The translations under genes and the position numbers were made by a program. Shown here piece after piece: positions 118 through 42,148 of a stretch of DNA of 64,000 bases (the stretch's first letter is position 1; each line of letters opens with the position of its first letter). The stretch is from Alphaproteobacteria bacterium. Lineage in GTDB: Bacteria; Pseudomonadota; Alphaproteobacteria; JAJFFI01. The notes below the pieces were generated by a model, which was not told the origin of the DNA, made no database searches, and saw nothing but the letters and a program-made list of their open reading frames with translations. The DNA is taken from the NCBI GenBank assembly GCA_030066595.1, contig JASJBI010000023.1, positions 85,717-149,716 on the forward strand, given 5' to 3'.

Positions 118-969
118 CTAAGCCGCGCGGATGCCCCGCATGCGCTCGTTGCGCCGGCGCAGCAGCTCGAGCGTCGCCAAGAGCGCGATCGAGACGCAGA
201 TCAGCACGGTGGCCACGGCCAGGATGGTGGGGCTGATCTGCTCCCGGATGCCGGACCACATCTGGCGCGGGATGGTGGTCTGCGCCGGGCCCGACAGGAA
301 CAGCACCGCCACCACCTCGTCGAACGAGGTGATGAAGGCAAACAGCCCGCCCGAGATCACGCCCGGCAGGATCAGCGGCACGATCACCTTGAAGAAGGTG
401 GTCGGCGGGGACGCGCCCAGGCTGGCCGAGGCGCGGGTCAGGCTGTGGTCGAAGCCGACCAGCGTCGCCGTCACGGTGATCACCACGAAGGGCGTGCCGA
501 GCGCGGCATGGGCCAGGATCAGGCCGGGATAGGTCTGGGCCAGGCCGACATTCGAATAGAAGAAGTACATGCCCGCCGCCGAGATGATGATCGGCACGAT
601 CATCGGCGAGATCAGCAACCCCATGATGACGGTGCGGAAAGGCATGAACGGCCGGCTCAGCCCGAGCGCCGCCAGGGTGCCCAAGGCGGTGGCGATGATC
701 GTTGCGGACACGCCAATGATCACGCTGTTCTGGACCGCCTGGATCCATTGCTCGTTGCGGAAGATGTCCTCGTACCAGCGCAGCGAGAAGGCGTCCGGGC
801 TCAAGCTCAACATGCCGGGGGTGAAGGTGAAATAGGGCTCGGCGTTGAAGGACAGCGGCACGATGATCAGGATCGGCGCGATCAGGAACAGGAACACCAG
901 GCCGCAGAAGAACCGGAAGCCGTAATACCAGGCCCGCTCACCAGCGCCGGCATAGGGAGGGAGTGCCAT
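118..969 (-). CDS. ABC transporter permease (PotC/PotI-like, polyamine-type importer)
   Basis: 283-aa polytopic hydrophobic ORF; last gene of a 4-gene ABC operon on the minus strand; 6-nt gap to the upstream permease. Confidence 0.85.
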   Translation of the reverse strand: MALPPYAGAGERAWYYGFRFFCGLVFLFLIAPILIIVPLSFNAEPYFTFTPGMLSLSPDAFSLRWYEDIFRNEQWIQAVQNSVIIGVSATIIATALGTLAALGLSRPFMPFRTVIMGLLISPMIVPIIISAAGMYFFYSNVGLAQTYPGLILAHAALGTPFVVITVTATLVGFDHSLTRASASLGASPPTTFFKVIVPLILPGVISGGLFAFITSFDEVVAVLFLSGPAQTTIPRQMWSGIREQISPTILAVATVLICVSIALLATLELLRRRNERMRGIRAA

Positions 970-975
970 ACCCGT

Positions 976-2238
976 TCACCCGAGCTTCATGTTGTCGACG
1001 CCGACGATGCGGTTGTAGAGGATGTAGAGCGCCAAGACGCCGCCGAGCAGGAGCGCACCCAAGGCGCCGGCCAGGCCCCAGTTCAACGATTTCTGCATGT
1101 GGAAGGCGATCAGGTTGCTGATCAGCTGTCCGGTGCGGCCGCCGACCAGCGCGGGCGTGATGTAGTAGCCGATCGACAGGATGAAGACGAGCAGCGAGCC
1201 CGCGCCGATGCCGGGTATGGTATTCGGGAAGTAGACCCGGAAGAAGGCCGTGGCCGGGGTCGCGCCCAGCGACCGCGCGGCCCGCACATAGCTCGGCGAG
1301 ATGGTCTTCATCACGCTGTACAGCGGCAGCACCATGAACGGGAGCAGGATGTGGGTCATGGCCACCACCGTCCCGGTCATGTTGTAGATCATCTGCACCC
1401 GGCTCTCATCCGAGATCAGACCCAGGGCCACCATGATGTCGTTCAACACGCCCTCGGTCTGCAGCATCACGATCCAGGACGTTGTCCGCACCAGGAGCGA
1501 GGTCCAGAACGGCAACAGCACCAGGATCATCAAGAGATTGCTGATCCGCACCGGCAAGGTCGCCATCAGGAAGGCGATCGGGTAGCCAAGCAACAGGCAC
1601 AGTACGGTGATCCCAAGGCTCACCCACAAGGTGCGCAGGAACAGGGGCACGTAGATCTGGCGGTCTTCGGCTTCGGACACGATCGACAGATCGTCGTCAT
1701 ATTTGAGGTCGAGCGCGGCCAGATAGTGGGTCAGGGTCAGGGGTTCCGACAGCACCTTGAGGGTCGTCCAGGTGCCCTGCTCGCCCCACTTCTTGTCGAT
1801 CTTGATGAGCGCCTCTTTCCACGGTCCGGCCTCGACCTTGGCCAGCCGGCGCGCCGATTTGGTGAACGTACTGCGCATCCCGCTGCGCTCGAAGTTCACG
1901 CGGGTAGCCACCCTGCCGATGGTGCGCGCCTTGCGGGCCGCCACCATCTCTTCGGCGAAGATGGCGAAGGTCGCCTCGTCGGGAATGCCCTGCCCGTCCC
2001 ACTCCTGAAGCGCCGCCGCCGTTCTGGGCAAGAGCGAGGGCAACAGCGAGTTGTCGACGCTGCGCAGCAGCATGCTGCCGATCGGGAAGATGAAGGCGAT
2101 CAGGACGAACGCCAGCAGCGGAATGACCAGCCCGAACGCCTTCAGCCGGTTGTTTCGGGTTGTCACGCGCAGCTTGGTCTTCAGCGGGACGCCGTCCGCT
2201 GTCTGGATGACCGGCCGCTCCATGGTCACGTCAGCCAT
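976..2238 (-). CDS. ABC transporter permease (PotB/PotH-like)
   Basis: 420-aa ORF with multiple TM segments and a permease EAA-loop region (SLGATPATAFFRVYFPNTIPG); sits between the SBP and second permease genes. Confidence 0.85.
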   Translation of the reverse strand: MADVTMERPVIQTADGVPLKTKLRVTTRNNRLKAFGLVIPLLAFVLIAFIFPIGSMLLRSVDNSLLPSLLPRTAAALQEWDGQGIPDEATFAIFAEEMVAARKARTIGRVATRVNFERSGMRSTFTKSARRLAKVEAGPWKEALIKIDKKWGEQGTWTTLKVLSEPLTLTHYLAALDLKYDDDLSIVSEAEDRQIYVPLFLRTLWVSLGITVLCLLLGYPIAFLMATLPVRISNLLMILVLLPFWTSLLVRTTSWIVMLQTEGVLNDIMVALGLISDESRVQMIYNMTGTVVAMTHILLPFMVLPLYSVMKTISPSYVRAARSLGATPATAFFRVYFPNTIPGIGAGSLLVFILSIGYYITPALVGGRTGQLISNLIAFHMQKSLNWGLAGALGALLLGGVLALYILYNRIVGVDNMKLG

Positions 2239-2330
2239 GGGACCCCTTGTGCAGTCTGCCCCTCGGCGAATCGGCTGGCGCCGGGGACAGCGGGAGGGAG
2301 GGCGGCCGCACGACCGCCCTCCGCCTCAGG

Positions 2331-3431
2331 TTACTTGGCCAGCCAGGCCGAGAACCGCTCGTTCAGCTCGTCCTGGTTGTCCGCCCAGAACTCGAAGCTG
2401 TTCTGCAGGGCGGTCTCGAAGTTCGCGGGCGTGGTCGGCATGTGCGGTTTCATGTCGATACCGGTTTCCGCATGCTTGCCCACCAGCGGCGCCGAAGACT
2501 TGCGCGCCGGGCCGTAGGAGATGTACTTGGCCTGGTCGGCGAGCCGCTGGGTGTCGGTCGAGAACTTGATGAACTCCAGCACCGCCTTCTTGTTCTTGGT
2601 GCCCTTGGGGATGCCCCAGAGGTCGATGTCCCAGACCTGGCCGTCCCAGATGATCACGAAGGGCTTGTTCTCGGAGACCTGGGCGTTGAAGATCCGGCCG
2701 TTATAGGCCGAGGTGATGGCCACCTCGCCGTCGGCCAGAAGCTGCGGCGGCTGGGCGCCCGCTTCCCACCAGACGATGCTGTCCTTGATGCTGTCCAGCT
2801 TCTTGAAGGCGCGGTCCCGGCCCTCGTCCGTCTCCAGCGTCTCATAGACCTTGTTGGCCGGCACGCCATCCGCCATCAGCGCCCATTCCAGGTTGATCTT
2901 CGGCGACTTGCGCAGGCCCCGCTTGCCCGGGAACGTCTTGGTGTCGAAGAAATCCGCGAGCGTCGTGGGCTTTTTGCCCGAGAACTTGGTGTCGTCATAG
3001 GCGACGATCGTCGACCACAGGATGGTGGCGACGCCGCACTCGTGCAGAGTGCCCTCGATGAAGTCCTCGGCCGCCGCCATGCCCTTGGGCGAAGGCGGCA
3101 GGATGGAGGCGTCGATCGGCTCCAAGAGGCCCTCGTCGCAGCCGCGCACGACATCGGCCAGCTCCAGATCGACCGCGTCCCAGGTAACGTTGCCGGCCTC
3201 GACCTGGGCCTTGATCTCCGCGAGCCCGCCGTTGTAGTCGACGGAATTGATCTTGTTGCCGGTCTTGGCCATCCACGGCTTGTGGTAGGCCTCGACCTGG
3301 CTCTTGGTGTAGGCGCCGCCCCAGGACACCACGGTGATGGTGTCCGCCGCGGAGGCCGCGCCGGCCGCGGCGAGGCTCAAGGCCACCGCCCCGGCCACCG
3401 CAAAGCTCGTCTTCGGAAGAATACCCGTCAT
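2331..3431 (-). CDS. ABC transporter periplasmic substrate-binding protein (PotD/PotF family)
   Basis: ORF 2331..3572 trimmed to Met48 (MTGILPKTSFAVAGAVALSLAAAGAASA is a signal peptide); ~365 aa mature size typical of a family-1 SBP. Confidence 0.8.
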   Translation of the reverse strand: MTGILPKTSFAVAGAVALSLAAAGAASAADTITVVSWGGAYTKSQVEAYHKPWMAKTGNKINSVDYNGGLAEIKAQVEAGNVTWDAVDLELADVVRGCDEGLLEPIDASILPPSPKGMAAAEDFIEGTLHECGVATILWSTIVAYDDTKFSGKKPTTLADFFDTKTFPGKRGLRKSPKINLEWALMADGVPANKVYETLETDEGRDRAFKKLDSIKDSIVWWEAGAQPPQLLADGEVAITSAYNGRIFNAQVSENKPFVIIWDGQVWDIDLWGIPKGTKNKKAVLEFIKFSTDTQRLADQAKYISYGPARKSSAPLVGKHAETGIDMKPHMPTTPANFETALQNSFEFWADNQDELNERFSAWLAK

Positions 3432-3538
3432 CGATTTCCTACTCCCTGTTTGCTGTCTGCCGGTTGCACCGGCTGTTTGCCTAGATCCGGCCGGCGCCAT
3501 GTGCCGCCGTCCCCAGACCGTTGAAATCCGGTTCGCCC

Positions 3539-4642
3539 TCACGTCCGGACGGACGCATCGAGCGCACGGCAATCCTCGGCCATCCAGCCCACCTTGACCT
3601 GTTCGCCCGGCTTGAGGTGGGCGTGGCCGGCGGCGTTCGGCACCTTGACGATGAAATCGTCATGGCCGCACAGATTGACCCGGGTCCGCACGTGATCGCC
3701 GAGATAGATCAGCTCTTCCACGCGGGCGTCGAACACGTTCGGCACGCTGCCGTTGGTCGGGTTGATGACCACCCGCTCGGGCCGCAGCGATAGCGTGGTC
3801 TCGGTCCCCTGGCCGTCGATGTTCACGGCCAGCGCCTGCACTTCGCCGCCGCCCTCGAGCTCGACCGTGCAGCCGCTGCCGTTAACGCCCCGGACCTGGC
3901 CGAAGAGCCGGTTGTTCTCGCCGATGAAGCTCGCGACGAAAGCGTTGTCAGGCTTCTCATACAAGACGTCCGGCGCGGCCAGCTGTTGGATCACGCCGTC
4001 GTCGAACACCGCGATGCGGTTCGACATGGTCAGTGCCTCGGACTGGTCGTGGGTGACATAGACCACCGTGACCTCGAGGTTCTCGTGGATGTGCTTGATC
4101 TCATATTGCATCTGCTCGCGCAGATTCTTGTCCAGCGCACCCAGGGGCTCGTCCATCAGCACCAGCTTGGGGTCGAAGACCAAGGCCCGCGCCACGGCCA
4201 CGCGTTGCTGCTGGCCGCCGGAGAGCTGGCCCGGCCGGCGCCCGCCGAAACCGCCGAGCTGGACCATGTCGAGGGCCCGGTTGACCCGCTGGGTGGTCTC
4301 TTCCTTGGGCGCCTTGCGCACCTGCAGCGGAAAGGCCAGGTTCTCCGCCACCGTCATGTGCGGGAACAGGGCGTAGTTCTGGAACACCATGCCGATGTCA
4401 CGCTTGTGCGGCGGCACATTGTTGATGGGATTGCCGTCCAGATAGATCTCACCATGGGTCGCGGGCTCGAACCCCGCGAGCATCATCAGGCAGGTGGTCT
4501 TGCCCGAACCCGAGGGGCCGAGCATGGTGATGAACTCGCCCTTCTCGATATCGAGATTGAGATTTTTGACGACGAGGGTCTCGCCGTCATAGCTCTTCTG
4601 GACTTCTCGAAAGCTGACGTAGGCCTCAATGCTGTTCGCCAT
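3539..4642 (-). CDS. ABC transporter ATP-binding protein (PotA/PotG-like)
   Basis: Walker [12 protein letters not shown] signature [15 protein letters not shown], Walker [14 protein letters not shown]-terminal TOBE-like domain; start trimmed to MANSIEAY (cat at 4640-4642). Confidence 0.85.
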
Positions 4643-4945
4643 GACCCGGCAATTGCCCCAACCCTGTTCAATGTCCCCGTCCTGATGGCGGGGTGTTTTT
4701 TTTCTTGCTGGCGCGCCAGAAGGCCGGCGGCCCCTCTGGCATGCCAGCGCAAATACTAAGGGATAACTTGGTGGAGGAAAACCCCGCGATTCCGACGCTT
4801 TTCCGTCGGATTCCGGCATCATGGCCAGCTCCGCCCAGCCAGACCAGTGAGCGATATCATCCAAGAATCAGGAGCTTATCGCCTACGCGGCCATGGAAAC
4901 CAAGACCGCGCATGAGGACCTGACAACGCCGCTCAGGCGCGTGCC

Positions 4946-6160
4946 TCAGGCCGCCTGGCGGAGGTGGAGCCGCTCCCAGACCTGGGTCAGCGCGGCGACC
5001 AGCGCGTCCATCTTGGCGTCGTCGTGCAGGGGCGAGGGCGTGATCCTGAGCCGCTCGGTGCCCTTGGGCACGGTCGGGTAGTTGATCGGCTGGATGTAGA
5101 TGCCGTGCTCCGCCATCAAGAGGTCGCTGGCCTGCTTGCAGGCCACCGGATCGCCCACCAGCACCGGCACGATATGGGTCTCGGACGGCATCACCGGCAG
5201 CCCCGCCTCGGCCAGGAGGTGCTTGAGCCGGGCCGCCCGCTCCTGATGCCGGTCGCGCTCCGTCTGGCTCGCCTTCAGGTGCCGCACCGAGGCCAGCGCC
5301 GCCGCCACCAGGGCCGGCGCCAGGGCGGTCGTGAAGATGAAACCCGGCGCGTAGCTGCGCACCGCGTCCACCAGTGCCGCCGAGCCCGCGATGTAGCCGC
5401 CCATCACCCCAAACGCCTTGGCCAAAGTGCCCTCGATCACCGTCAGCCGGTCCATCACCCCGTCCCGCTCGGCGATCCCGGCGCCCCGCGGGCCATAGAG
5501 ACCGACCGCGTGCACCTCGTCCAAATACGTCATCGCCCCGTAGCGCTCCGCCAGATCGCAGATCGCCCCGATCGGCGCCACGTCGCCATCCATGGAATAG
5601 ACCGACTCGAAGGCCACCAGCTTGGGCGCGTCTTGAGGCGCCGCCGCCAGCAACTCCTCCAGATGGGCCAGATCGTTGTGCCGGAAGATCCGCTTCTCCG
5701 TCCCGGAATGCTTGATCCCCTCGATCATCGAGGCGTGGTTCCAAGCGTCCGAAAAGATGATGCAGCCCGGCAGCAGCTTCGCCATGGTGCTCAAGCAGGC
5801 CTCGTTCGCCACATAGCCCGAGGTGAACAACAAGGCCGCCTCGGTCCCGTGCAGGTCCGCCAGCTCCCGCTCCAACAAAACATGCTGGTGCGTCGTCCCC
5901 GAGATGTTGCGCGTGCCGCCCGCCCCCGCCCCCATGCGCTCGGCCGTCGCCGTCATCGCCGCAACCACGTCCGCGTGCTGGCCCATGCCCAGATAGTCGT
6001 TCGAGCACCAGATCACCACGTCCCGCGGATCCTCGCCCCCACCGTAGCTCAAGGCCTCCGGAAACCGACCGCAGCGCCGCTCCAAATCCGCAAACACACG
6101 GTACCGACCCTCACCCTTGACCTGCTCGACCGCCTGACGAAACCGCTCTTCGTAGTTCAT
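4946..6160 (-). CDS. hemA: 5-aminolevulinate synthase
   Basis: Full-length similarity pattern to ALAS ([26 protein letters not shown]-lysine region [12 protein letters not shown]); start trimmed to MNYEERFRQ (cat at 6158-6160). Confidence 0.9.
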
Positions 6161-6253
6161 GATGCGCTCCCACACGCTGCCTCCCGCTCGCGCCGACGAT
6201 CCGGCCGCGAGGGGGTGCCTTACTTTATATCTGTGCCCATTTAGCGCCAAGCT

Positions 6254-6274
6254 TGGTTAATTGGCCATTAACCA
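6254..6274. promoter_or_regulatory. AT-rich perfect inverted repeat TGGTTAAT-N5-ATTAACCA in hemA upstream region (candidate operator)
   Basis: 8-bp perfect arms, centred ~105 nt upstream of the hemA start codon, inside the only AT-rich stretch (6219-6275) of a 68% GC region. Confidence 0.35.
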
Positions 6275-6393
6275 TAGGGTCGCAGTCTGCACGGCACTCA
6301 GCCGCTTCGCGTGATAGAACCGCACCGATCAGCAGACCGGCTACCTGTCCATCTTGTGTGGCCGAGTTGCCGGAGCAACACCGCTAGGACGAT

Positions 6394-7233
6394 ATGCCGA
6401 AAAGCCTTCCACAGCGCCTGAGGCGACGGGTCAGAGGCCGGATCCGGTCGGCGCTCGGTGACCTCCGCCTGCTGCCCTTCGTTCTTCCCCGCCGCTTCCA
6501 CGCCTACGGGTGCGGCATAGGCAAGACGGGCACCCACTCGATCAACGCGATCTTCAGCAACTATCGCACGGCCCATGAAGTCGACATACGGCGAACGGTA
6601 AGGCTTGTCGTCGCCTACAGGGATGGCACCATTTCGGATCAGGAGATCGAGCGGCTCCTGCTGCGACGCGACCGCCAACTTTGGCTGGAAATGGACTCGT
6701 CCGGCATCAACGGCGACCTGGCCAAGCCCCTGGCAAGGATCAGCCCCGAGGCGAAATTCGTCCTGACCATCCGCGATGTGTACAGCTGGGCCGATTCAGC
6801 CATCAACCAGATCATCAACTTTCGTCCCTTGACCACGCCGTGGGCCCCACTGTACCGGAGACGCTTGCGGCTCGGCGTTCTTCACCACACGCCTCAGGAT
6901 GAACCGCTCGAATCGCGCGGTCTTCCCCCTCTCGCGTCCTTCATGATCTCCTGGGATGAACGCAACCGAAATGTGCTCGACTCGGTGCCCGACGACCGTC
7001 TCATGATCGTGAGAACGCCTGAGATCGGGGCACAGGCCGCGGCGATCGGAGCCTTTGTCGGCGTGCCCGCGGACAACTTGGTTCTCGAGCGCGCGCAAAG
7101 CTACGTGACGAAGAACAAGCACGGCGTGTTGGCCGAGCTGGACAGCGCTTACGTTCGGGACATGGCCGAGCGATATTGCGGCGACCTGATGCGCCGGTTC
7201 TTTCCGGACGTTAGGCCCTATGACGGAACCTGA
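6394..7233 (+). CDS. sulfotransferase-family protein (hypothetical)
   Basis: 279 aa; N-terminal P-loop-like PAPS-binding-type motif GCGIGKTGTHS; lower GC and more A/T-ending codons than neighbours. Functional call is from the motif only. Confidence 0.5.
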   Translation: MPKSLPQRLRRRVRGRIRSALGDLRLLPFVLPRRFHAYGCGIGKTGTHSINAIFSNYRTAHEVDIRRTVRLVVAYRDGTISDQEIERLLLRRDRQLWLEMDSSGINGDLAKPLARISPEAKFVLTIRDVYSWADSAINQIINFRPLTTPWAPLYRRRLRLGVLHHTPQDEPLESRGLPPLASFMISWDERNRNVLDSVPDDRLMIVRTPEIGAQAAAIGAFVGVPADNLVLERAQSYVTKNKHGVLAELDSAYVRDMAERYCGDLMRRFFPDVRPYDGT

Positions 7234-7461
7234 CGCCGTCGTCTGAGGCCCGCTCGCCCCGCATGTCGCAGGGCCACCAGAATCCGTCCGGGTCGCAACA
7301 GGCGCCGATTTGCCGCTACCCTAGCGTTTCGACGAAAAACAGGACAGCACGCGGGACTTCGAGGGCAGACCATGACGGACGTTGACGGCTCAAGACCCGG
7401 ATTATTCTGTCGCTGGACGGCGCCGTCCCGCCGTCGCGCCGCGGCCTGAGGGAGCGACCGG

Positions 7462-7956
7462 ATGTACGCGGTCCGCCTCTGGTCGGTGCGCCACGCCAAG
7501 GGGCTGAACCGCCTCTATCACGCATTCGAGTGGGTGATCCGCCGGCTGCACCCCCTGTGCGCGCGGATCGGCTATGACCGGCTCGAGCGCCCGGTGGCGG
7601 CGGTCGAGAAACCGATCAAGGAATTCCTGTTCGACTGTCGCATGTGCGGCCAGTGCGTTCTGTCCGAGACCGGCATGTCCTGCCCGATGAACTGTCCCAA
7701 GGCGCTGCGCAACGGGCCCTGCGGCGGGGTGCGGGCGGATGGCGGCTGCGAGGTCGAGCCCGAGATGCGCTGCGTCTGGGTCGCCGCCTGGGAGGGCGCC
7801 CAGCGCATGGGCACGGAGCCGACCCTGGCGCTGCAGGCGCCCGTAGACCACAGCCTGCTCGGCCGCTCCTCCTGGCTGCGCGTGGTCCGCGCGCTCGGCC
7901 AAGAGGCCCAGCCTGTGGCGGACGAAGGCCGCAAGGGGGCGACGGTGCCGCGATGA
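7462..7956 (+). CDS. MTHFR C-terminal-domain (MetV-like) Cys-rich protein
   Basis: Cys cluster CRMCGQCVLSETGMSCPMNCPKALRNGPCGG; SD GAGGGAG 10 nt upstream; ATGA stop/start overlap with the downstream metF-like gene. Confidence 0.6.
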   Translation: MYAVRLWSVRHAKGLNRLYHAFEWVIRRLHPLCARIGYDRLERPVAAVEKPIKEFLFDCRMCGQCVLSETGMSCPMNCPKALRNGPCGGVRADGGCEVEPEMRCVWVAAWEGAQRMGTEPTLALQAPVDHSLLGRSSWLRVVRALGQEAQPVADEGRKGATVPR

Positions 7957-9047
7957 GCCAGGACGAAGGCGAGGTCCGCGAAGATCTGTTCGGCTATGCC
8001 AGTCCCGGCCCGCCGCCGCCCGGCTATTCCTCGCACGGATGGCTCGAGCATCTCTTGCGCAGCGGCGTGTTCGCGGTGACCGCGGAGCTCAACCCACCGG
8101 ACTCCGCCGATCCCTACGAGGTCTACGAGCGCGCCGCGGTCCTGGCCGAGGTGGTCGACGCGATCAACGCCACCGACGCCTCGGGCGCCAATGTGCACAT
8201 GTCCAGCGTCGGCATCTGCGCGCTCTTGACCCGGGACGATCTGGCGCCGGTGCTGCAGGTCTCCTGCCGGGACCGCAACCGCATCGCCATCCAGGGCGAC
8301 GTCCTTGGGGCCGCCGCCATGGGCGTATGCAACGTCTTGTGTCTGACCGGCGACGGGGTCGGCGTCGGCGACCAGCCCGAGGCCAAGCCGGTCTTCGATC
8401 TCGACTGCATGTCGCTCTTGAGCACGATCCGGATGATGCGGGACGAGGGCCGGTTTCTCTCCGGCCGGCCGCTCACCGAGCCGCCCAAGGTGTTCCTCGG
8501 CGCGGCCGCCAACCCGTTCGTGCCGCCCTACGACTTCCGCCCGCTCCGGCTGGCCAAGAAGATCGAGGCGGGCGCCCAGTTCGTGCAGACCAACTATTGC
8601 TTCGACCTGCCGATCCTCAAGGACTACATGGCCCGGGTGCGGGACCTGGGCCTCGACGAGACCTGCTTCATCCTGGTCGGCGTGGGGCCGCTGGCGAGCG
8701 CCCGCGCGGCCCGGTGGATCCGCTCCCGGGTGCCCGGCATCCACATCCCGGACGCGGTGGTCGAGCGGCTCGAACGCGCCGGCGACCCGCGCCTCGAGGG
8801 CAAGAAGCTCTGCATCGAGCTGATCCAGGAGATCCGCGAGATGCCGGGCGTGGCCGGCGTGCACATCATGGCCTACCGCCAGGAGGAGATGGTGGCCGAC
8901 ATCGTCGCCGAGTCGGGCGTGCTGGAAGGCCGCACCGAGGCGCAGATCGGGCTCGCCGGGCTCAGGCGGCAGCAGGCCCGCAAGCGCCGGACGATGCTGG
9001 AGATTCTCGGGCGCAGATTCCGTCGGACAGAAGACCGGGATAGCTGA
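7953..9047 (+). CDS. metF: 5,10-methylenetetrahydrofolate reductase (MetF family)
   Basis: ORF 7644..9047 trimmed to MSQDEGEV (atg 7953-7955); MetF-family TIM-barrel pattern (AVTAELNPP..., QFVQTNYCFD..., HIMAYRQEEM). Confidence 0.8.
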   Translation: MSQDEGEVREDLFGYASPGPPPPGYSSHGWLEHLLRSGVFAVTAELNPPDSADPYEVYERAAVLAEVVDAINATDASGANVHMSSVGICALLTRDDLAPVLQVSCRDRNRIAIQGDVLGAAAMGVCNVLCLTGDGVGVGDQPEAKPVFDLDCMSLLSTIRMMRDEGRFLSGRPLTEPPKVFLGAAANPFVPPYDFRPLRLAKKIEAGAQFVQTNYCFDLPILKDYMARVRDLGLDETCFILVGVGPLASARAARWIRSRVPGIHIPDAVVERLERAGDPRLEGKKLCIELIQEIREMPGVAGVHIMAYRQEEMVADIVAESGVLEGRTEAQIGLAGLRRQQARKRRTMLEILGRRFRRTEDRDS

Positions 9048-10016
9048 TCACGCCGGGACGCGGCGCTCCTCGCGCGGGGTGCGGCCGAAGTGCTCGCGGT
9101 AGCATTTCGAGAAGTGAGAGGCCGAGACGAAGCCGCAGGCCACCGCTACGCTGAGCACGGAAAGCGACGTCTGCATAAGGAGTTGCCGGGCGTGATTGAG
9201 ACGCAACTCCAAGTAATAGCGGGTCGGCGTGCGATGCAGGTATTTCTGAAACAGGCGCTCGAGCTGGCGCGTCGAGAGATCGACCTGCTGGGCCAGCGCG
9301 CGCTGGCTGAGCGGCTGCTCGATGTTCTGCTCCATGAGCCCGATCACCTCCAAGAGCTTGGGGTGGGCGATGCCGAGCCGCTGGCGCAGGTTCATGCGCT
9401 GGTGGTCGTGCTGGTCGCGCATGCGCTGGTAGATGAGCTCGTCGGAGACCGCGGCAGCCAGCTCGTAACCGTTCTGCACGGCGATCATCTTGAGCATCAA
9501 GTCGAGCGCCGCCGTGCCCCCCGAGCAGGTGAACCGGTTGCGGTCGATCTCGAAGATGTCCGAGGTGACGTCCAGATGGGGAAACTCCTCGGCAAAGCCG
9601 GGCAGGTTCTCCCAGTGGATGGTGCAGCGATAGCCGTCCAAAAGCCCGGCCCGGGCCAACAGATGGCTCGCCGTGCAGAGCGCGCCGATGTCGGCGCCGC
9701 GCGCCGCCAGGCGACGCAGCCAGGCGAACAGCTTGGCATCCTCCTGGCCCTGGACGTCGATGCCGCTGCACACCGCCACCGTGGGCACGAAGTCCACATT
9801 GCCCACCGCCTCGTCGGCGACCACGTCGACATGGCAGGAGGCGGTGACCGGCAGGCCGTCCATGGACAGCACCTGCCACTCGTAGAGCGGCTTGCCGCTG
9901 ACCCAGTTGGCCAGGCGCAACGGCTCCACCGCCGCCGTAAAGGCGGACATGGAGAATTTCGGCACCAGCACAAAGGCGATGCTCTCCGTCTTGTGGCTCT
10001 TCGTCGCCCCGAACAT
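9048..10016 (-). CDS. AraC-family transcriptional regulator with DJ-1/PfpI-like N-domain (GlxA-type)
   Basis: N-terminal DJ-1/PfpI-like region (GALCTASHLLARAGLLDGYRCTIHW) and C-terminal AraC HTH (...SVLSVAVACGFVSASHFSKCYREHFGRTP). Confidence 0.85.
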   Translation of the reverse strand: MFGATKSHKTESIAFVLVPKFSMSAFTAAVEPLRLANWVSGKPLYEWQVLSMDGLPVTASCHVDVVADEAVGNVDFVPTVAVCSGIDVQGQEDAKLFAWLRRLAARGADIGALCTASHLLARAGLLDGYRCTIHWENLPGFAEEFPHLDVTSDIFEIDRNRFTCSGGTAALDLMLKMIAVQNGYELAAAVSDELIYQRMRDQHDHQRMNLRQRLGIAHPKLLEVIGLMEQNIEQPLSQRALAQQVDLSTRQLERLFQKYLHRTPTRYYLELRLNHARQLLMQTSLSVLSVAVACGFVSASHFSKCYREHFGRTPREERRVPA

Positions 10017-10324
10017 GGCCGTTCCCTTGCCTCGCGATGCCGGCGAGTCGACGGGGATTCTAGCACAGTCATGTCGGATTTAGACAAGTAAAGCGGGCCC
10101 AACTCCCTGGTCTTTCTTGCCTCTCTCGGGCCAGGATTGCCGGGATGAGCGGCCCGCATCCCGACCGGCCGCCGCCATTCTCTGGTCAGAATCGAAATGT
10201 TGTTTCCGGGCCGGCGGGTCTATCATGTGTCGCCCAGCGCGGGATCCGAGCGCGGCGCCCGTAAGACGACTTGCGACCGCCGGCCGAGATTTGGCGCTGA
10301 CCGAGAGTGCATGAGTAGGAACAC

Positions 10325-10576
10325 ATGAAGCTCGTATTGGCCGTGTTTCTTGCCGTCGTCGCGGCTTCGGTCGTGACTTTCGTGCGGTATGAGAGCTTCA
10401 GCCCGTGCGTCTGGATGGAGCAGGATCTGGCTGAACAGTCCGGCCTGCCGGTGCTTGTCGTCCAGAGCCGGATCCGCGCAGGCTTTCTGATCGAGGGCGT
10501 GGTCGATCCCGATCCCTACGACTGCGTCCTTGCCTGGTGGCGATTCAGAGCGGAGGGGCTGCCCGAGGAGTCTTGA
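10325..10576 (+). CDS. small hypothetical protein with N-terminal TM/signal segment
   Basis: 83-aa ORF, MKLVLAVFLAVVAASVV hydrophobic start, purine-rich stretch before the ATG; no recognisable family. Confidence 0.3.
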   Translation: MKLVLAVFLAVVAASVVTFVRYESFSPCVWMEQDLAEQSGLPVLVVQSRIRAGFLIEGVVDPDPYDCVLAWWRFRAEGLPEES

Positions 10577-10690
10577 CCGGCGCACCCGGACCGACTGCCG
10601 CGAGACCGCCAGCGGACGCATCTCAGGCAGATCGCGAAAGGCCGCCCCTGATCCATTGCCGTCATCAGGTCGTGTCCAGGGCAACGGCAC

Positions 10691-12403
10691 ATGTCGGCTG
10701 GGAACGGTAGAGGGAGTCCCGCCGTCATGCGTCTCATTGCCTCGCTCGCGGCTCTCGTGGTCCCCACGCTGGCTGCGTTGGCGTTCTGGTGGTGGCAGGG
10801 CCGGCCGCTGGCGATCGTCGACCTGCCCGGCGGACGCCTCCAGTGTCTGTCCTACACGCCCTTCGAAGGGGATCAATCGCCGCTCGACAAGGACTACCGC
10901 GTTTCGGCCGAACGCATCCGCCGGGACATGGCTGCGCTGAAGCCCTACACGGACTGCCTTCGCACCTATTCCTCAATCGGCACCCAGGCCCAGGTGGTGC
11001 CGATCGCCCGGGAGCACGGCATGACGGTCATGGCCGGCGCCTGGATCAGCGGCGACGCCGAGACCGATGCCGAGGAGATCGACGGCGTGCTGCGCCTCGC
11101 CGCGGCCTATCCGGACACCGTCAGCACGGTCATCGTCGGCAACGAGGTCTTGCTGCGACGGGAAATGCCCGGAGACGCGCTTGCCGATCTGATCCGCTCG
11201 GTCAAGGCGCGCACCAGCAAGCCCGTCACCTACGCCGACATCTACGAGTTTTGGCGCCGCAATCCCCAAGTGGCGGCGTCCGTCGACCATCTGATGCTTC
11301 ATGTCCTGCCCTACTGGGACGACCCGCGGCCGGTCTCCATCGATCGGGTGCAGGACCACGTTCGGGGGATCGTCGCGCGGGCGCAGGCAACCTTTCCCGG
11401 CAAGACCATCGTCATCGGCGAGATCGGCTGGCCGAGCGCCGGCCGCACCCGGGGCGGGGCGGCGCCGGGCCGGGTCAATCAGGCGCGCTTCGTCCGCGAG
11501 TTCGCGGCGGGCGCCGCAAAGCTCGGTCTTCGCTACAACCTGATCGAGGCCATCGACCAGCCGTGGAAGAAGGGCGCGGAAGGGACCGTCGGCGGCTTCT
11601 GGGGCGTCCTCGACCGAAGCCGCGAGGCGAAGTTCCCGATGACCGGACCGGTCAGCGAATGGCCGCGCTGGCCGCTCGCCCTGGTCTTCGCGACGGTGCT
11701 CTCGGTCGCGACCGTGCTGGCCGGCTGCCGCGGCCGGCAGCGGTGCTCGATCCGCCAGATGCTCGCCCTGGCATTCCTGGGGCAAGTCCTGGGCGCGACC
11801 CTGGTGTTTCAGGCCGATCTCGTCGCGACGAGCAGCCGGAGCTGGCTGGGCTGGCTTGGCGGGGCGGCCATGGCGGCAACGTCGATCGCCGCCGCGGCGA
11901 CCGCCGTGCCCCTCATTCGCCGGGATGGCGGCGTCTGGGCCACGGTCCGTCCGGCCACGCAAAACGCGCTGCTGGCATGGCTTCGCCGCCCGCGGCTTGC
12001 CGCGCTGTCGCCGCCCCTATCGCTGGCGGCGCTGCAGGCCGCCGTGCTCGTGCCCGCGGCTATCGCCGCGATCGCGCTCGCCTTCGATCCGCGGCACCGG
12101 GACCTGCCGACGCCCTTCTATCTGATCCCGGCCCTGGCGTTCGGCGCACGCTGGCTGGCCGCGCGCAATGCCGGCACGCCGGCGCCGGACCGCCGCGAAG
12201 AAGCCTGGCTGGCGTTCGTGCTGGTGGCGGGCGGGCTGTTCTCGCTCGACGGCTGGCAGAATGTCGAGGCCATGGTCTGGACCTTGGTGGCGTGTGCGCT
12301 GGCGCTACCCTGGCTCGGCGCCTCGGCCCTCGAAGTCCGACGGCTGGTCGCGATCGTCGCCGCGCCGCGCCAGAGCGACGAGCGCGATGGCGGTCGCGGC
12401 TGA
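10691..12403 (+). CDS. glycoside hydrolase family 17 domain fused to polytopic membrane domain (NdvC-like beta-glucan synthesis/remodelling protein)
   Basis: GH17 hallmarks (IVGNEVL, catalytic-Glu region IGEIGWPSAG) in the N-terminal ~330 aa, followed by ~240 aa of hydrophobic TM helices; ~62 kDa as for NdvC. Confidence 0.7.
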   Translation: MSAGNGRGSPAVMRLIASLAALVVPTLAALAFWWWQGRPLAIVDLPGGRLQCLSYTPFEGDQSPLDKDYRVSAERIRRDMAALKPYTDCLRTYSSIGTQAQVVPIAREHGMTVMAGAWISGDAETDAEEIDGVLRLAAAYPDTVSTVIVGNEVLLRREMPGDALADLIRSVKARTSKPVTYADIYEFWRRNPQVAASVDHLMLHVLPYWDDPRPVSIDRVQDHVRGIVARAQATFPGKTIVIGEIGWPSAGRTRGGAAPGRVNQARFVREFAAGAAKLGLRYNLIEAIDQPWKKGAEGTVGGFWGVLDRSREAKFPMTGPVSEWPRWPLALVFATVLSVATVLAGCRGRQRCSIRQMLALAFLGQVLGATLVFQADLVATSSRSWLGWLGGAAMAATSIAAAATAVPLIRRDGGVWATVRPATQNALLAWLRRPRLAALSPPLSLAALQAAVLVPAAIAAIALAFDPRHRDLPTPFYLIPALAFGARWLAARNAGTPAPDRREEAWLAFVLVAGGLFSLDGWQNVEAMVWTLVACALALPWLGASALEVRRLVAIVAAPRQSDERDGGRG

Positions 12404-13132: not shown

Positions 13133-13228
13133 ACGACCTCGAGGCGCTGGCGCCAGGCCGTCTGGTCGCCCGCGGCGCCCGCGCTATAGTGCCGCCCGCA
13201 GTTTCAGCGCTCGGAGCAAGGCCCCGAC

Positions 13229-14473
13229 ATGGCAGACGACGTCAAGATCACGGAGCCGGCCGCCGCGCTCGCCATCGCCGAGCGGCTCGCGACGCTCGCC
13301 CTGGCCGGCGCGTCGGAAAGCGATCTCCTCGACGCGATGTGCGACGGGCTGGTCGCGGCGGGCGTGCCAGTGCGGCGGGTGCTGGTCGGCGTCGATCTCT
13401 TGCACCCCAAGCTCTGCGCCGAGAACGTGGTCTGGCGCCACGGCGCGGGCGCCGAGCGCACCCACTATCTGCGCGAGGACCTCGAGGAGACGGATGCGCA
13501 ATGGCGGCAAAGCCCCTTCTACCCCATGTCCGAGGCCGGCGAGACGCGCTTCCGCCAGCGCCTCGACGGCTCGGAGGATCCCGACCGCTTCCCGGTCTTC
13601 GCCGACCTGCGCGCGGCCGGCATGACGGACTACTTGGCCTACATCAGCACTCTGGGCGAGAACGCCACCATCGGCGAGATGGACAGCGTCTATTCGTCTT
13701 GGAGCACGGACCGCGCGGGCGGGTTTGAGGCCGCCGACATCGCCACCCTGGAGGCGCTGCTGCCGGTCTTCGTGCTGGCCTTCAAGTCCGCCCTGGTCGA
13801 CTGGATGGGGGAGTCCCTGATGGAGACCTATCTCGGGCGGGACGCGAGCCGGCGGGTGCTGCGCGGCGCCATCGACCGGGGCGCGGCCCGCTCGATCCGG
13901 GCTGTGATCTGGTACAGCGATCTCGAGGGCTCGACCCGCATCGCCGACACCGAGCCCCGCGACCGGCTGATGGCGCTCTTGAACGACTACGCCGAATGCG
14001 TCGTCGACGCGATCGACGCCCATGACGGCCAGGTGCTCAAATTCATGGGCGACGGCATCCTCGCGATCTTCGAGTTGGACGACGATCCGGAACAGGCCTG
14101 CGGCCGGGCGCTCCTGGCCGCGGGCGGCGCCTTGGCTACGGTGGCCGACCTCAACGCCCGGCGCCTGGCCGAGGGCCTGCCCACCACCCGGGTCAATCTG
14201 GCGCTGCATCTGGGCGACGTTCTGTACGGCAACATCGGCAGCCAGGACCGGCTCGATTTCACCGTGGTCGGCCCGGCGGTCAACGAGGCGAGCCGGATCG
14301 AGGCCATGTGCCGCGGGCTCGAGCAGGACGTGATCGTCTCGGCCGCGTTCGCCGCGGCCGCCGGGCGCATCGGCGGCCGCCTGGTCTCCCTCGGCCGCTA
14401 CGCGCTCCGCGGCGTGCGCCAGCCGCAGGAGCTCTTCACGCTGGATCCGGAGGCGCGGGCGACGGGGGACTGA
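13229..14473 (+). CDS. class III adenylate/guanylate cyclase with N-terminal sensor-like domain
   Basis: C-terminal CHD cyclase domain motifs (WYSDLEGSTRIA, KFMGDGILAIF, VNEASRIE); N-terminal ~200 aa of unknown sensor type. Confidence 0.8.
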   Translation: MADDVKITEPAAALAIAERLATLALAGASESDLLDAMCDGLVAAGVPVRRVLVGVDLLHPKLCAENVVWRHGAGAERTHYLREDLEETDAQWRQSPFYPMSEAGETRFRQRLDGSEDPDRFPVFADLRAAGMTDYLAYISTLGENATIGEMDSVYSSWSTDRAGGFEAADIATLEALLPVFVLAFKSALVDWMGESLMETYLGRDASRRVLRGAIDRGAARSIRAVIWYSDLEGSTRIADTEPRDRLMALLNDYAECVVDAIDAHDGQVLKFMGDGILAIFELDDDPEQACGRALLAAGGALATVADLNARRLAEGLPTTRVNLALHLGDVLYGNIGSQDRLDFTVVGPAVNEASRIEAMCRGLEQDVIVSAAFAAAAGRIGGRLVSLGRYALRGVRQPQELFTLDPEARATGD

Positions 14474-14716: not shown

Positions 14717-17152
14717 CTAAGCCCTCAGCCGTTCGTTCTCCGGGTCGAACGGGGACTCCGGGATCACCGTGGCGCGGTGGCGGTCGCCCAGGATCTCGAT
14801 CTCGAGATCGGTGCCAAGCTCGGCCAGCTCCGGCCGCACCATGCCCAGCGCCAGGCTCTTGCCCAGCCGCCAGCCGTAGTTGCCGCTGGTGGCGCGGCCG
14901 ACCAGGGTGCCGTTCTGGTAGATCGGCTCGTTGCCGCGGGCGTCCACGTCGCCGACGTCGTGCACCTCGAGCGTGACGAATGCATTTTGGAAGCCCCGCT
15001 GCTGCCACTCGACCAGGGCGTCGCGGCCGATGAACTGCTCCTTGTTCAGGCGCACGAACCGGTTCAGGCCGGATTCCAGCGCCGCGTACTCGATCGAGAG
15101 CTCCCGCGGGATCAGCCGGTAGGACTTCTCGACGCGCAGGCTGTCCATGGCGCGGATGCCGAAGGGTTGCAGATCGAATTCCGCGCCCGCGTCGAACAGG
15201 AGGTCGTAGATGTAGTTCTGCATCTCGATCGGATGATGCAGCTCCCAGCCCAGCTCGCCGACGAAATTGACGCGCAGCGCGTGGGCCTGGGCGCAGCCCA
15301 CATTGACGAACTGGCCCGAGAGCCACGGGAAGGTCTCGGTCGAGAGGTCCGTGTCCGTGACCTTCTGCAAGAGATCCCGTGAATGCGGCCCGGCCACGAC
15401 CAGCACGCCGTACTGGCTCGTCACCTTCTGCAGCCGGACGCTGCCGTCCGGGGGCAAGAGCTTGGTCAGATAGTCGTCGTCGTGCCGCTCCATGGCGCCG
15501 GCCGAGACCAGGTAGAACCGGTCCGGGGCCTGGCGGTAGATGGTGAACTCCGAACGCACGCCGCCGTTGCCCGACAACATGTGGCAGAGGCCGATGCGCC
15601 CGACCGTCTGGGGCAGCCGGTTGGCCACGAGCCCGTCGAGCCAGGCCTCGGCCCCCGGCCCGCTCACCTGGAACTTGGAGAAGGCGGACATGTCCAGGAG
15701 CCCGACCTTCTCGTGCACGTGCCGGCACTCGTTGCCGACATGCTCGAAATAGTTGGTGCGGCGGAAGGACCAGACATCCTTGGGCTCGACGCCTTCGGGC
15801 GCGAACCAGTTGGGGCGCTCCCAGCCGTACACCTGGCCGAACACGGCGCCGCGCGCCTTCATGCGGTCGTAGCAGGGGGTCTGCTTCAAGGGGCGCGCGG
15901 CCGGGCGCTCCTCGTCCGGGAAGTGGATGGTGAAGACGTTCGCATACGCCTCCTCGTTCTTCTCCTTGAGGTAGCCGCGCGAGGCATAGGGGCCGAACCG
16001 CCGCGGGTCGACGCCCATCATGTCGATGGTCGATTCACCCTCGACGATCCACTCGGCGAGCTGCCAGCCCGCACCGCCCGCCGCCGTGATGCCGAAGCTG
16101 TGGCCCTCGTTGAGCCAGAAGTTGGGCAGATCCCAGGCCGGGCCGATGATCGGCGAGCCGTCCGGCGTGTAGCAGATGGCGCCGTTGTAGACCTCCTTGA
16201 CGCCGACCTCGCCGAAGGCCGGCACCCGGAAGATCGCCGACTCGATATGCGGCTCCAGCCGGTCGAGATCCTCCTGGAACAGCTCGTATTCGGCGTTTTC
16301 GCTGGGGCCGTCCACATAGCAGCAGGGCGCGCCGATCTCGTAGGGGCCGAGCAAGAGGCCGCCGGCCTCCTCGCGCATGTACCAGGACGCGTTCGAGTCC
16401 CTGAGCACGCCCATCTCCGCCAAGCCCTGCTCGTGCCGGGCCTGGATCTCGGGGTGGGGCTCGGTGACGATGAACTGGTGCTCGACCGGGATCACCGGGA
16501 TCTCGAGCCCGACCATGGCGCCGGTCTGGCGGCAGAAGTTGCCGCTGGCCGAGACCACGTGCTCGCAGGTGATGTCGCCCTTGTCCGTCTGAACCCGCCA
16601 TTCGCCCGCGGCCGTGCGCTCGATACCGGTCACCGTGGTCTGGCGGTAGATCTCGGCGCCGCCGGTCCGCGCGCCTTTGGCCAATGCCTGGGTCAGATCG
16701 GCGGGCTGGATGTAGCCGTCCTCGGGATGCTGGATCGCGCCGATCAGCCCCTCGGTGTTGCAGAGCGGCCAGATCTCCTTGACCTGTTCGGGGGTGAGAT
16801 GGCGCACGTCGACGCCGATCGTCTTGGCCACGCCGACATAGTAGTTGTACTCGTCCATGCGCTCCGGGGACGAGGCGAGGCGGATGTTCGAGACCCGGCG
16901 CAGGCCCACGTCCTGGCCGGTCTCCTCCTCGAGCTTCCCGTAGAGCGCCACCGAGTATTTGTGGATCTGGCCGACGCTGTAGCTCATGTTGAAGAGCGGC
17001 AGGAGCCCGGCCGCATGCCAGGTGGAGCCCGAGGTGAGCTCCTTGCGCTCGACCAGCACCACGTCCGACCAGCCCTTCTTGACGAGGTGATAGAGCGTCG
17101 ACACGCCGACGACGCCGCCGCCGATCACCACCACGCGCGCGTGTGATTTCAT
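14717..17152 (-). CDS. dimethylglycine/sarcosine dehydrogenase-family oxidoreductase (FAD-dependent oxidase domain + GcvT-type folate-binding C-domain)
   Basis: 811 aa; N-terminal dinucleotide fold VVVIGGGVVGVSTLYHL, C-terminal aminomethyltransferase-fold region; length matches dimethylglycine dehydrogenase. Confidence 0.85.
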   Translation of the reverse strand: MKSHARVVVIGGGVVGVSTLYHLVKKGWSDVVLVERKELTSGSTWHAAGLLPLFNMSYSVGQIHKYSVALYGKLEEETGQDVGLRRVSNIRLASSPERMDEYNYYVGVAKTIGVDVRHLTPEQVKEIWPLCNTEGLIGAIQHPEDGYIQPADLTQALAKGARTGGAEIYRQTTVTGIERTAAGEWRVQTDKGDITCEHVVSASGNFCRQTGAMVGLEIPVIPVEHQFIVTEPHPEIQARHEQGLAEMGVLRDSNASWYMREEAGGLLLGPYEIGAPCCYVDGPSENAEYELFQEDLDRLEPHIESAIFRVPAFGEVGVKEVYNGAICYTPDGSPIIGPAWDLPNFWLNEGHSFGITAAGGAGWQLAEWIVEGESTIDMMGVDPRRFGPYASRGYLKEKNEEAYANVFTIHFPDEERPAARPLKQTPCYDRMKARGAVFGQVYGWERPNWFAPEGVEPKDVWSFRRTNYFEHVGNECRHVHEKVGLLDMSAFSKFQVSGPGAEAWLDGLVANRLPQTVGRIGLCHMLSGNGGVRSEFTIYRQAPDRFYLVSAGAMERHDDDYLTKLLPPDGSVRLQKVTSQYGVLVVAGPHSRDLLQKVTDTDLSTETFPWLSGQFVNVGCAQAHALRVNFVGELGWELHHPIEMQNYIYDLLFDAGAEFDLQPFGIRAMDSLRVEKSYRLIPRELSIEYAALESGLNRFVRLNKEQFIGRDALVEWQQRGFQNAFVTLEVHDVGDVDARGNEPIYQNGTLVGRATSGNYGWRLGKSLALGMVRPELAELGTDLEIEILGDRHRATVIPESPFDPENERLRA

Positions 17153-17289: not shown

Positions 17290-17334
17290 CGCGGGGTCTA
17301 GGCGAACTCATAGACCATTTCCTCGACCTGCCGC
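17290..17334. repeat. 45-bp imperfect direct repeat, copy A (intergenic, upstream of acyl-CoA synthetase)
   Basis: 40/45 identical to 20969..21013 in the same orientation. Confidence 0.7.
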
Positions 17335-17394
17335 CATGGTCCGGGGAATGGCGCGGGTGGTCGCGGAGCGACCCCGGAGCCGACCGGCCACATC

Positions 17395-25037: not shown

Positions 25038-25232
25038 TGCGATAAGAGCGACCGCCGGTGGGCGCCTGCATGGTTAGGCGCCCACCGAGGCAGGAGCGGC
25101 GGCGCCTGGCCTGATCGGCCTGCGTCCCGCGTCTTGCCCGTGACCGCGCAGGGCATCTGCGCCGCCTCCCGGCGAGATGCTGTCGTCTCGTGGCCAGTGA
25201 CATCCGTGCGCCATTGGCGATAATCCGGAGCC

Positions 25233-41776: not shown

Positions 41777-42148
41777 GCAGGTCCGGCACGGCTACGCAAT
41801 ATCATTCAATATCAAAGAGATTGGCCCGAGTTGCCAGCGTTCTCTGTGGGCTTCCGCACATGCGGAGGCCGGCGCCGACCTCCGCGTTGGGGTCGTCGGA
41901 CGCCGCCCGGAGCGGCGCCCGGCCGGGTCGAATATGAGCCACTAGAAGGCCGTCTCACGACAGTATCGGGTCTGGCCGGGGTCTACCGTTTCGCCGGATC
42001 GGTGTCGTGGCCGGGCCGGCAGAACGGGCCTATACTGCTGGCAAACAGGGCCGGGATTGGCGCGAAACGGCGCCTCGCGCTCGGGCAAACGGGCGGAAAG
42101 AACCGGGCCGACGACACAAAGCGCGCCGGTTGAACGCGCGCCCAACTC

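Follow-up and report, generated by a model that had tools for sequence, protein, structure and literature searches.

In a 64,000-nucleotide stretch of an alphaproteobacterial contig (JASJBI010000023.1; hereafter the window, GC content ~67%), two overlapping genes at positions 7462–9047 encode a two-component MetV/MetF-type methylenetetrahydrofolate reductase (MTHFR). This enzyme is probably an oxidative 5-methyltetrahydrofolate (CH3-THF) dehydrogenase of betaine catabolism, in which MetV would hand the electrons on to an acceptor that is not NAD(P)+. Its family membership is established by profile matches, and the cysteines of MetV, the translational coupling of the two genes, the catalytic Glu and Asp of MetF and the gene neighbourhoods are conserved among relatives. 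The two genes are:

7462–7956, + strand: metV-like gene, 164-amino acid (aa) small subunit, PF12225, eight invariant cysteines
7953–9047, + strand: metF-like gene, 364-aa MTHFR catalytic subunit, PF02219, sox-linked subclade

In the proposed scheme, MetF would be a TIM-barrel flavoprotein interconverting CH3-THF and 5,10-methylenetetrahydrofolate (CH2-THF), and MetV would wire its flavin to an external redox partner through two [4Fe-4S] clusters. The pair would belong to a catabolic regulon for betaine, an N-osmolyte, under a GbdR-like regulator. A DmdA-related enzyme of the GcvT family (26244–27635) would move a methyl group onto tetrahydrofolate (THF), and a cobalamin-dependent MtgBCD system elsewhere in the genome is a possible further source of methyl groups for THF. 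MetVF would oxidise the resulting CH3-THF to CH2-THF, to be pooled with the CH2-THF formed by a dimethylglycine dehydrogenase (DMGDH)-like enzyme and by the sarcosine oxidase SoxBDAG, and the electrons would exit through MetV.

An MTHFR acts only between CH3-THF and CH2-THF, and SoxBDAG and DMGDH-type enzymes deliver CH2-THF directly. A catabolic MTHFR therefore makes sense only together with a step that yields CH3-THF. A first-pass annotation of the window, made from the sequence alone, had MetVF reoxidise or recycle the folate that such enzymes load with C1 units; this has to be given up, since CH2-THF from DMGDH- or GcvT-type enzymes can be oxidised without MetF. The CH2-THF/CH3-THF couple lies near −200 mV and its oxidation with NAD+ is unfavourable, so that an Fe-S wire to an acceptor of higher potential would solve the difficulty.

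The metV–metF gene pair

The coordinates, cysteine pattern and ATGA overlap given in the first-pass annotation were all recovered from the sequence, and the profile searches that it proposed matched both open reading frames (ORFs). The metV-like ORF matches PF12225 (MTHFR C-terminal/DUF5981; E 1.3e-26, 92.5 bits, cut-off 23) and the metF-like ORF matches PF02219 (MTHFR; E 1.1e-27, 97.6 bits, cut-off 24). The ATGA at 7953–7956 overlaps the metV stop with the metF start, and a 4-nt (NTGA) overlap is kept in 70 of the 79 homologous loci. A Shine-Dalgarno-like GAGGGAG motif lies 7–13 nt 5′ of the metV ATG. GC content at third codon positions (GC3) reaches 0.91, or 0.83 when the longer stop-to-stop frame is taken, a bias typical of real genes in both frames; the metV-like ORF is therefore not a spurious frame of GC-rich DNA.

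As in other MetVF-type MTHFRs, metV is directly upstream of metF within one transcription unit, as the ATGA overlap indicates. No RnfC2, HdrABC or MvhD partner was detected alongside the pair in a Pfam scan that covered window ORFs with coding-like GC3 and not every ORF; among the scanned ORFs the arrangement is that of a type II MTHFR. The Pfam matches, the invariant cysteines and the conserved overlap establish the pair as a two-component MetV/MetF-type MTHFR, in line with its first annotation. A scan of positions 6000–11000 for sigma-70 promoters and terminators gave nothing useful, and an Rfam scan of the same interval revealed no S-adenosylmethionine (SAM), B12 or THF riboswitch upstream of metV.

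A Sulfotransfer_4-like ORF (6394–7233, + strand, E 2e-7) precedes metV on the same strand with a gap of 228 bp. It is not kept at that position in relatives; among the homologous loci (cited below by L numbers), L005 carries a Sulfotransfer_5 gene close to its sox genes.

The cysteines of MetV (C59, C62, C65, C74, C78, C87, C96 and C104, in the pattern CRMCGQC...CPMNCP...GPCGG...C...C) are invariant, 8 of 8, among 83 distinct homologues; the N-terminal MYAVR.W is also conserved among homologues. On sequence grounds the cysteines can suffice to ligate two [4Fe-4S] clusters and thus fit the content of acetogen MetV, for which two such clusters were predicted and measured (PMC8760232). MetV has no relative in the PDB by sequence or by profile, Foldseek returned no PDB match, and the AlphaFold model is weak (mean pLDDT 72, 52–56 in the Cys-rich core).

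The window pair is of the same class as acetogen MetVF (type II of Oppinger et al. 2021, PMC8760232; type 3 of Yu et al. 2025, PMC11868366). It shares with the enzymes of Clostridium ljungdahlii and C. formicoaceticum the order metV-then-metF, a PF02219 MetF, a PF12225 MetV with cysteines for two [4Fe-4S] clusters, and the absence of an adjacent RnfC2 or Hdr/Mvh partner gene. Acetogen MetVF, when purified, works with neither NADH nor NADPH (PMC8760232), in agreement with the early suggestion that the Cys-rich partner could couple the reductase to a carrier other than NADH. Unlike acetogen MetVF, the window pair occurs in an aerobic alphaproteobacterial host with no Wood-Ljungdahl genes, in a betaine context under an AraC/GlxA regulator, and its reaction is proposed to run oxidatively, towards an acceptor of high potential.

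The catalytic subunit

Judged by profile scores, the window MetF is not a canonical bacterial MetF, as had been claimed of the gene from the start. It reaches 43.9 bits with the canonical model TIGR00676, below the equivalog cut-off of 293.7, and among NCBIfam models it matches best the MTHFR half of NF006396, a bifunctional model of the YitJ type (197 bits). A 21-member family profile aligned with Escherichia coli MetF at 92.8% probability (hhalign), and the following positions correspond:

E. coli Glu28: window E45, invariant in the family
E. coli Asp120: window D134, invariant in the family
E. coli Lys172: window K203, invariant in the family
E. coli Gly61 (Leu48 of S6MTHFR, NADH-blocking): window Thr74, Thr or Val in the family
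E. coli Gln183: window Asn214, Gln in 60 of 60 operon-type relatives, Asn in the window's subclade

Thr74 replaces the Gly that gives NADH room in E. coli MetF. It falls at the site of Leu48 in S6MTHFR, the type 4 enzyme of Sphingobium lignivorans SYK-6, where this residue blocks NADH (PMC11868366). The substitution is consistent with an acceptor other than NAD(P)+, and the lack of a riboswitch upstream of metV was counted on the same side.

Sphingomonads had been cited as a precedent for MetVF. This does not hold: the MTHFR of SYK-6 is a type 4 enzyme of one subunit, and MetV is not mentioned there (PMC11868366). The S6MTHFR structure 7XG9 is absent from the PDB matches of both the window MetF (E ≤ 0.01) and its subclade profile (E ≤ 0.001), so that these searches do not place the window MetF among type 4 enzymes. 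The pathway proposed for the window shares its logic with the type 4 system, in which CH3-THF from a THF-dependent demethylase, of the GcvT family or another, is oxidised by a dedicated MTHFR that does not use NADH (ligM-metF-ligH in SYK-6; homologues in Methylorubrum CM4 and Rhizorhabdus Ndbn-20; PMC11868366). Unlike the window pair, S6MTHFR is a single-subunit flavin adenine dinucleotide (FAD) enzyme without MetV. MetF2 of Methylorubrum CM4 was considered as a relative and rejected: there was no MetV-like match on a Methylobacterium/Methylorubrum plasmid, and the CM4 enzyme is of type 4 according to Yu et al. (PMC11868366).

Distribution of the family and the common mtg operon

Homologues of each subunit fall into at least 8,000 protein clusters (90% identity), the best matches being 60–85% identical. 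Exact copies of both sequences occur in an Alphaproteobacteria metagenome-assembled genome, on a 172-kb contig. We analyzed 80 loci from species-representative genomes of Steroidobacteraceae, Halomonadaceae, Rhodospirillales, Sneathiella, Hyphomicrobiales and others. Mapping of reference proteins onto these closest MetV loci revealed the gene order mtgC-DUF1638-PF13769-metV-metF-mtgD-ramA in ~70 of the 80, coding for a corrinoid protein, a DUF1638 protein, a PF13769 'virulence factor', MetV, MetF, a pterin-binding methyltransferase and a RACo/RamA-like activator. A GbdR-like regulator adjoins ~25 of these loci, and ~20 have a DMGDH-like gene near metVF or the mtg operon whose product is 59–63% identical to that of window gene 14717–17152. 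The annotated clusters of Sinorhizobium meliloti and Paracoccus aminovorans contain the same operon together with a 'trimethylamine methyltransferase family' (MttB/MtgB) gene, with a GlxA-family regulator nearby.

This operon is the cobalamin-dependent system described for glycine betaine by Mausz et al. (2025), in which MtgB, MtgC and MtgD demethylate glycine betaine onto tetrahydrofolate (there H4F; PMC12478193). In Ruegeria pomeroyi, no protein is induced more strongly on glycine betaine, choline or carnitine than MetF2 (SPO1862), which is encoded beside mtgD. On betaine its level rises by ~8 log2 units, that of the canonical SPO3323 does not rise, and MetF2 has been proposed to oxidise CH3-H4F (PMC12478193). 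The adjacent 'uncharacterized protein' SPO1861 is co-induced on part of the conditions (supplementary table of PMC12478193), and MetV or PF12225 is nowhere mentioned in that work. RamA-like and DUF1638 proteins were earlier linked to the split methionine synthase of Phaeobacter (PMC5764234). The MetVF-type MTHFR family is very large and widespread in aerobic Proteobacteria and is tied there to osmolyte demethylation.

Like MetF2, the window MetF is a non-canonical MTHFR paralogue tied to betaine catabolism, with a GlxA/GbdR-type regulator near and the same proposed job, conversion of CH3-H4F to CH2-H4F. The sequence comparison was made by proxy, through the MetF proteins encoded in the mtg clusters of S. 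meliloti and P. aminovorans (65.6–66.4% identical to the window MetF). Unlike the MetF2 system, the window pair is not beside mtgC, mtgD, ramA, DUF1638 or PF13769 genes and belongs to a separate, sox-linked subclade.

The PF13769 protein (~100 aa, conserved WRDIPAQV motif, no Cys cluster) is encoded directly upstream of metV in ~70 loci (L003–L086, e.g. L005:9638–9946). The distance from its stop to the metV start is −1 to +10 nt in ~60 of 75 loci, the genes thus overlapping or abutting. It is absent from the window and, at that position, from the sox-linked subclade. From this arrangement, which couples it translationally to metV in most loci, the protein may be a third component of proteobacterial MetVF and is a candidate for its redox partner.

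Several loci deviate from the common order. L060 (Halomonas sp. C05BenzN, 8520–12370) has a GcvT-family gene followed by metV, purU and folD, with no metF beside that metV; a second metV copy lies at 550–987, ~9 kb off and on the opposite strand. L026 (Billgrantia campisalis, 9887–12364) has metV followed directly by prfC and no metF, unlike B. gudaonensis (L001). At L098:9755–10000, metV is truncated to 81 aa beside an insertion sequence (IS) transposase. L026 and L098 show signs of decay elsewhere in the MetVF family. An extra MTHFR paralogue (49% identical) stands between PF13769 and metV-metF in L014 (a Dongiaceae metagenome-assembled genome, 6204–8601), and L081 (5175–9629) carries a second, distant metV-metF-RACo set (35–40% identical) back to back with the main operon.

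The sox-linked subclade

Compared with operon-type MetFs, the window MetF carries other residues at 25 positions where the former are at least 90% conserved. Most of these departures are common to its closest relatives (P0122–P0137, 73–85% identical) and are therefore signatures of a subclade rather than marks of decay. The signatures include QTN for QTQ, LAEV for FDG, xDL for xGY and a C-terminal IGLxGLRxQ tail. The genomic context of the subclade was read at six loci:

L093, L095, L100: soxB-soxD-soxA-soxG-metV-metF, a convergent GbdR-like regulator, then a 434-aa GcvT-family gene (GcvT434)
L099: the same set with the GcvT-family gene ahead of soxB, plus a betaine/carnitine/choline-family (BCCT) transporter gene and formate-THF ligase
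L098: (IS-truncated metV)-metF-GcvT434-DMGDH-like
L094: soxG remnant, then metV-metF

No known betaine demethylase was found in the sox-linked loci examined. In the relatives soxBDAG is directly joined to metVF, while in the window the same gene set is spread over ~55 kb: soxG-soxA-soxD-soxB, coding for the heterotetrameric sarcosine oxidase, was located at L089:10849–14880, ~6–11 kb to the left of window position 1. Between soxGADB and metVF there are a LysR gene, a radical-SAM gene, an ABC transporter, 5-aminolevulinate synthase and a sulfotransferase-like gene. The remaining members of the set and their neighbours are:

118–4867, − strand: ABC transporter (two permeases, solute-binding protein, ATPase); binding protein 54% identical to one of the L093 neighbourhood
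9048–10016, − strand: GbdR-like regulator (GlxA family, DJ-1/PfpI plus AraC helix-turn-helix (HTH), PF01965 and PF12833), convergent with metF
14717–17152, − strand: DMGDH-like gene (DAO, FAO_M, GCV_T and GCV_T_C domains in Pfam)
22057–24111: Old Yellow Enzyme (OYE)/Fe-S gene (Oxidored_FMN and Pyr_redox_2 in Pfam)
25224–26132, + strand: PhyH-like ORF (Fe(II)/2-oxoglutarate dioxygenase family), adjoining the GcvT-family gene
26244–27635, + strand: DmdA-related GcvT-family gene (PF01571, PF08669), orthologue of GcvT434
42149–43804, + strand: BCCT-family transporter (PF02028, 642 bits)

The Pfam matches confirm the families given earlier to the genes at 14717–17152, 22057–24111, 26244–27635 and 42149–43804, and the link to betaine or methylated-amine catabolism proposed with them is upheld by the conserved synteny of soxBDAG with GbdR-like, GcvT-family, DMGDH-like and BCCT genes. 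The OYE/Fe-S gene had been counted as part of the module; it has no match in 86 loci (L001–L086) and lies outside the conserved neighbourhood.

The regulator scores 409.9 bits with the GbdR model NF052371, below the equivalog cut-off of 480, and has the same DJ-1 plus AraC HTH architecture; by this measure it is to be called GbdR-like only. It is 61–64% identical to its positional counterparts in L093 and L095. Its gene and metF abut without a spacer (window 9045–9050) and overlap by 4 nt in L093 (11089–11092) and L095 (11095–11098), the converging genes leaving no room for a terminator. The PhyH-like ORF has no Pfam match at E ≤ 1e-4 and is 46% identical to the faintly PhyH-like neighbour of the GcvT-family gene in L093. 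The window BCCT protein is 55% identical to that of L093, and BCCT genes are also found in L099 and in the haloarchaeal locus L097.

It is very improbable that the window pair is a decaying or non-functional duplicate stranded after loss of the mtg operon. The 25 deviations, the lack of mtgC, DUF1638, PF13769, mtgD and ramA neighbours and the real decay seen in other loci (metV IS-truncated in L098, metV without metF in L026) would all be compatible with such a history. However, both ORFs of the window are intact, with GC3 of 0.83–0.91; the pair has kept 8 of 8 cysteines, its catalytic Glu and Asp residues, the gene overlap and the Shine-Dalgarno-like motif; and most deviations are synapomorphies of a subclade whose members are 73–85% identical. 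Decay was therefore rejected as the explanation of the MetF deviations.

The DmdA-related GcvT-family enzyme

The product of 26244–27635 is the best conserved of the set, being 81–82% identical to GcvT434 of L093 and L095. It scores 272 bits with the DmdA model NF009133, below the cut-off of 410, and is 32–35% identical to annotated (roseobacter) DmdA. Like DmdA it has the GcvT fold, and its closest solved structure is DmdA 3TFH (164 bits versus 125 for GcvT). On these scores the protein is DmdA-related and not DmdA itself. DmdA is a precedent for direct transfer of an onium methyl group to THF, yielding CH3-THF. The first-pass annotation had both the DMGDH-like and the GcvT-family enzymes generate CH2-THF; this stands for the former, whereas the latter, through its relation to DmdA, more likely makes CH3-THF. 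Unlike DmdA, the true orthologues of this gene are found in sox/DMGDH/BCCT contexts and on haloarchaeal megaplasmids.

The haloarchaeal orthologues (L096, Haloarcula marismortui pNG700, and L097) are 56–65% identical; the Haloarcula protein is WP_011222745.1. Their neighbours are DHFR, FolD, formate-THF ligase and BCCT genes, two ~855-aa DMGDH-like genes and a gene for a 286-aa MTHFR, which suggests that a betaine-type catabolic module moved between domains. At the BLASTP level the 286-aa MTHFR is unrelated to the window MetF, and it matches S6MTHFR (7XG9/7XLF) with E 3e-36; a type 4 enzyme thus adjoins these orthologues instead of MetVF. Oxidation of CH3-THF by S6MTHFR has been demonstrated by experiment; the enzyme scarcely binds NAD(H) and is coupled with THF-dependent demethylases (PMC11868366). 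One GcvT-family enzyme has thus acquired MTHFR neighbours of two unrelated types, one in bacteria and one in archaea, and this comparison argues strongly that it makes CH3-THF and that MetVF consumes it. The pairing implies, as far as sequence comparison can tell, that the product of the GcvT-family enzyme is CH3-THF to be oxidised by MetVF, with the S6MTHFR type as a non-orthologous replacement.

Direction of catalysis

Catalytic direction, cofactors and electron acceptor of MetVF are predicted here from conservation and context, as are the substrate and product of the GcvT-family enzyme. Oxidation is favoured by the arrangement around the closest MetF relatives, soxBDAG-metV-metF followed by the gbdR-like gene and GcvT434, or metF-GcvT434-DMGDH. 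The Halomonas order GcvT-like-metV-purU-folD (L060) points the same way.

The opposite direction would make MetVF a housekeeping reductase, converting the CH2-THF from sarcosine and dimethylglycine oxidation to CH3-THF for methionine with a low-potential donor acting through MetV. In its favour, catalysis by MTHFRs can run either way, the acetogen MetVF is mainly known for reduction, and type 3 enzymes are taken to be reductive by Yu et al. (PMC11868366). No canonical metF was found within the window, and metVF directly follows the CH2-THF-making soxBDAG in relatives. However, the adjoining GbdR-like regulator is a catabolic one, there is no SAM, B12 or THF riboswitch, and metV of Halomonas is linked with the C1 oxidation genes purU and folD. 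The R. pomeroyi response to betaine, in which MetF2 beside mtgD rises by ~8 log2 units and canonical SPO3323 does not (PMC12478193), also speaks against reduction, as does the pairing of the haloarchaeal GcvT-family gene with an S6MTHFR-type enzyme unable to reduce CH2-THF (PMC11868366). We consider the reductive role unlikely.

A dual enzyme, which would oxidise CH3-THF on methylated osmolytes and otherwise supply CH3-THF for methionine, would resemble the bidirectional MtgD/MtgC. Genetic evidence shows that both methionine synthesis and betaine demethylation depend on MtgC and MtgD, and classical MetH is missing from ~70% of marine MtgBCD genomes (PMC12478193); MetVF lies between MtgC and MtgD in most loci. 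R. pomeroyi, however, retains a separate canonical metF (SPO3323), and in the window's subclade metVF is no longer part of the mtg operon but accompanies sox and GcvT-family catabolic genes. A dual role therefore also appears improbable for the window pair.

Certain observations weigh against the preferred role of MetVF as an oxidative CH3-THF dehydrogenase. The CH2-THF producers SoxBDAG and DMGDH beside metVF leave room for a reductive, methionine-supplying function. No mtgB, mtgC, mtgD, ramA, DUF1638, PF13769, folD or purU was detected in the window (Pfam on ORFs with coding-like GC3; tblastn at E ≤ 10) or in ~15 kb of its left flank, so that the local source of CH3-THF would be the GcvT-family enzyme, as predicted from its sequence. 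The change of Gln183 to Asn could affect folate handling. Finally, no regulatory motif common to the intergenic regions of the window, L093 and L095 was found: there was no shared 9-mer, and a search for 14-mers with up to 3 mismatches gave GC-rich matches only, barely above shuffled controls.

Other genes of the window

Three tandem genes for AMP-binding (acyl-CoA synthetase-like) proteins occupy 46317–50950 (+ strand), the first two ORFs overlapping. A fourth AMP-binding gene (17314–19047, + strand) lies beside a gene for a thiamine pyrophosphate enzyme and is divergent from the DMGDH-like gene. An Na+/H+ exchanger fused to a cyclic-nucleotide-binding domain (39200–41791, − strand) and an adenylate/guanylate cyclase-domain protein (13190–14473, + strand) may form an osmotic signalling pair.

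Implications

The kind of enzyme (acetogen MetVF; MetF2 of MtgBCD) and the logic of its coupling (type 4 MTHFR with a demethylase) are already known. In the literature searched we found no description of an Fe-S-type MTHFR of aerobes paired with a GcvT-family demethylase and a sarcosine oxidase operon, of the signature residues of the sox-linked MetF subclade, or of a cobalamin-independent GcvT-family betaine demethylase. The sox-linked subclade points to a putative DmdA-related demethylase, which is predicted to form CH3-THF because the MTHFRs beside it in bacteria and archaea are of two unrelated types.

Tentatively, GcvT434, MetVF, SoxBDAG, the DMGDH-like enzyme, the BCCT transporter and the GbdR-like regulator could together form an entire pathway, independent of cobalamin, by which glycine betaine or a closely related onium osmolyte is converted to glycine. 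The GcvT-family enzyme would then be the first-step betaine:THF methyltransferase and MetVF its dedicated, Fe-S-wired CH3-THF dehydrogenase. If true, this would be a fourth aerobic route of betaine demethylation beside GbcAB, BHMT and MtgBCD, common to Alphaproteobacteria and haloarchaea, with the S6MTHFR-type enzyme standing in for MetVF in the latter. Tractable aerobes such as S. meliloti, Paracoccus and Ruegeria would make the question of the MetVF redox partner, acknowledged also for acetogens, accessible to experiment. If the substrate is glycine betaine, the gene markers used for betaine turnover in marine and hypersaline environments would need revision.

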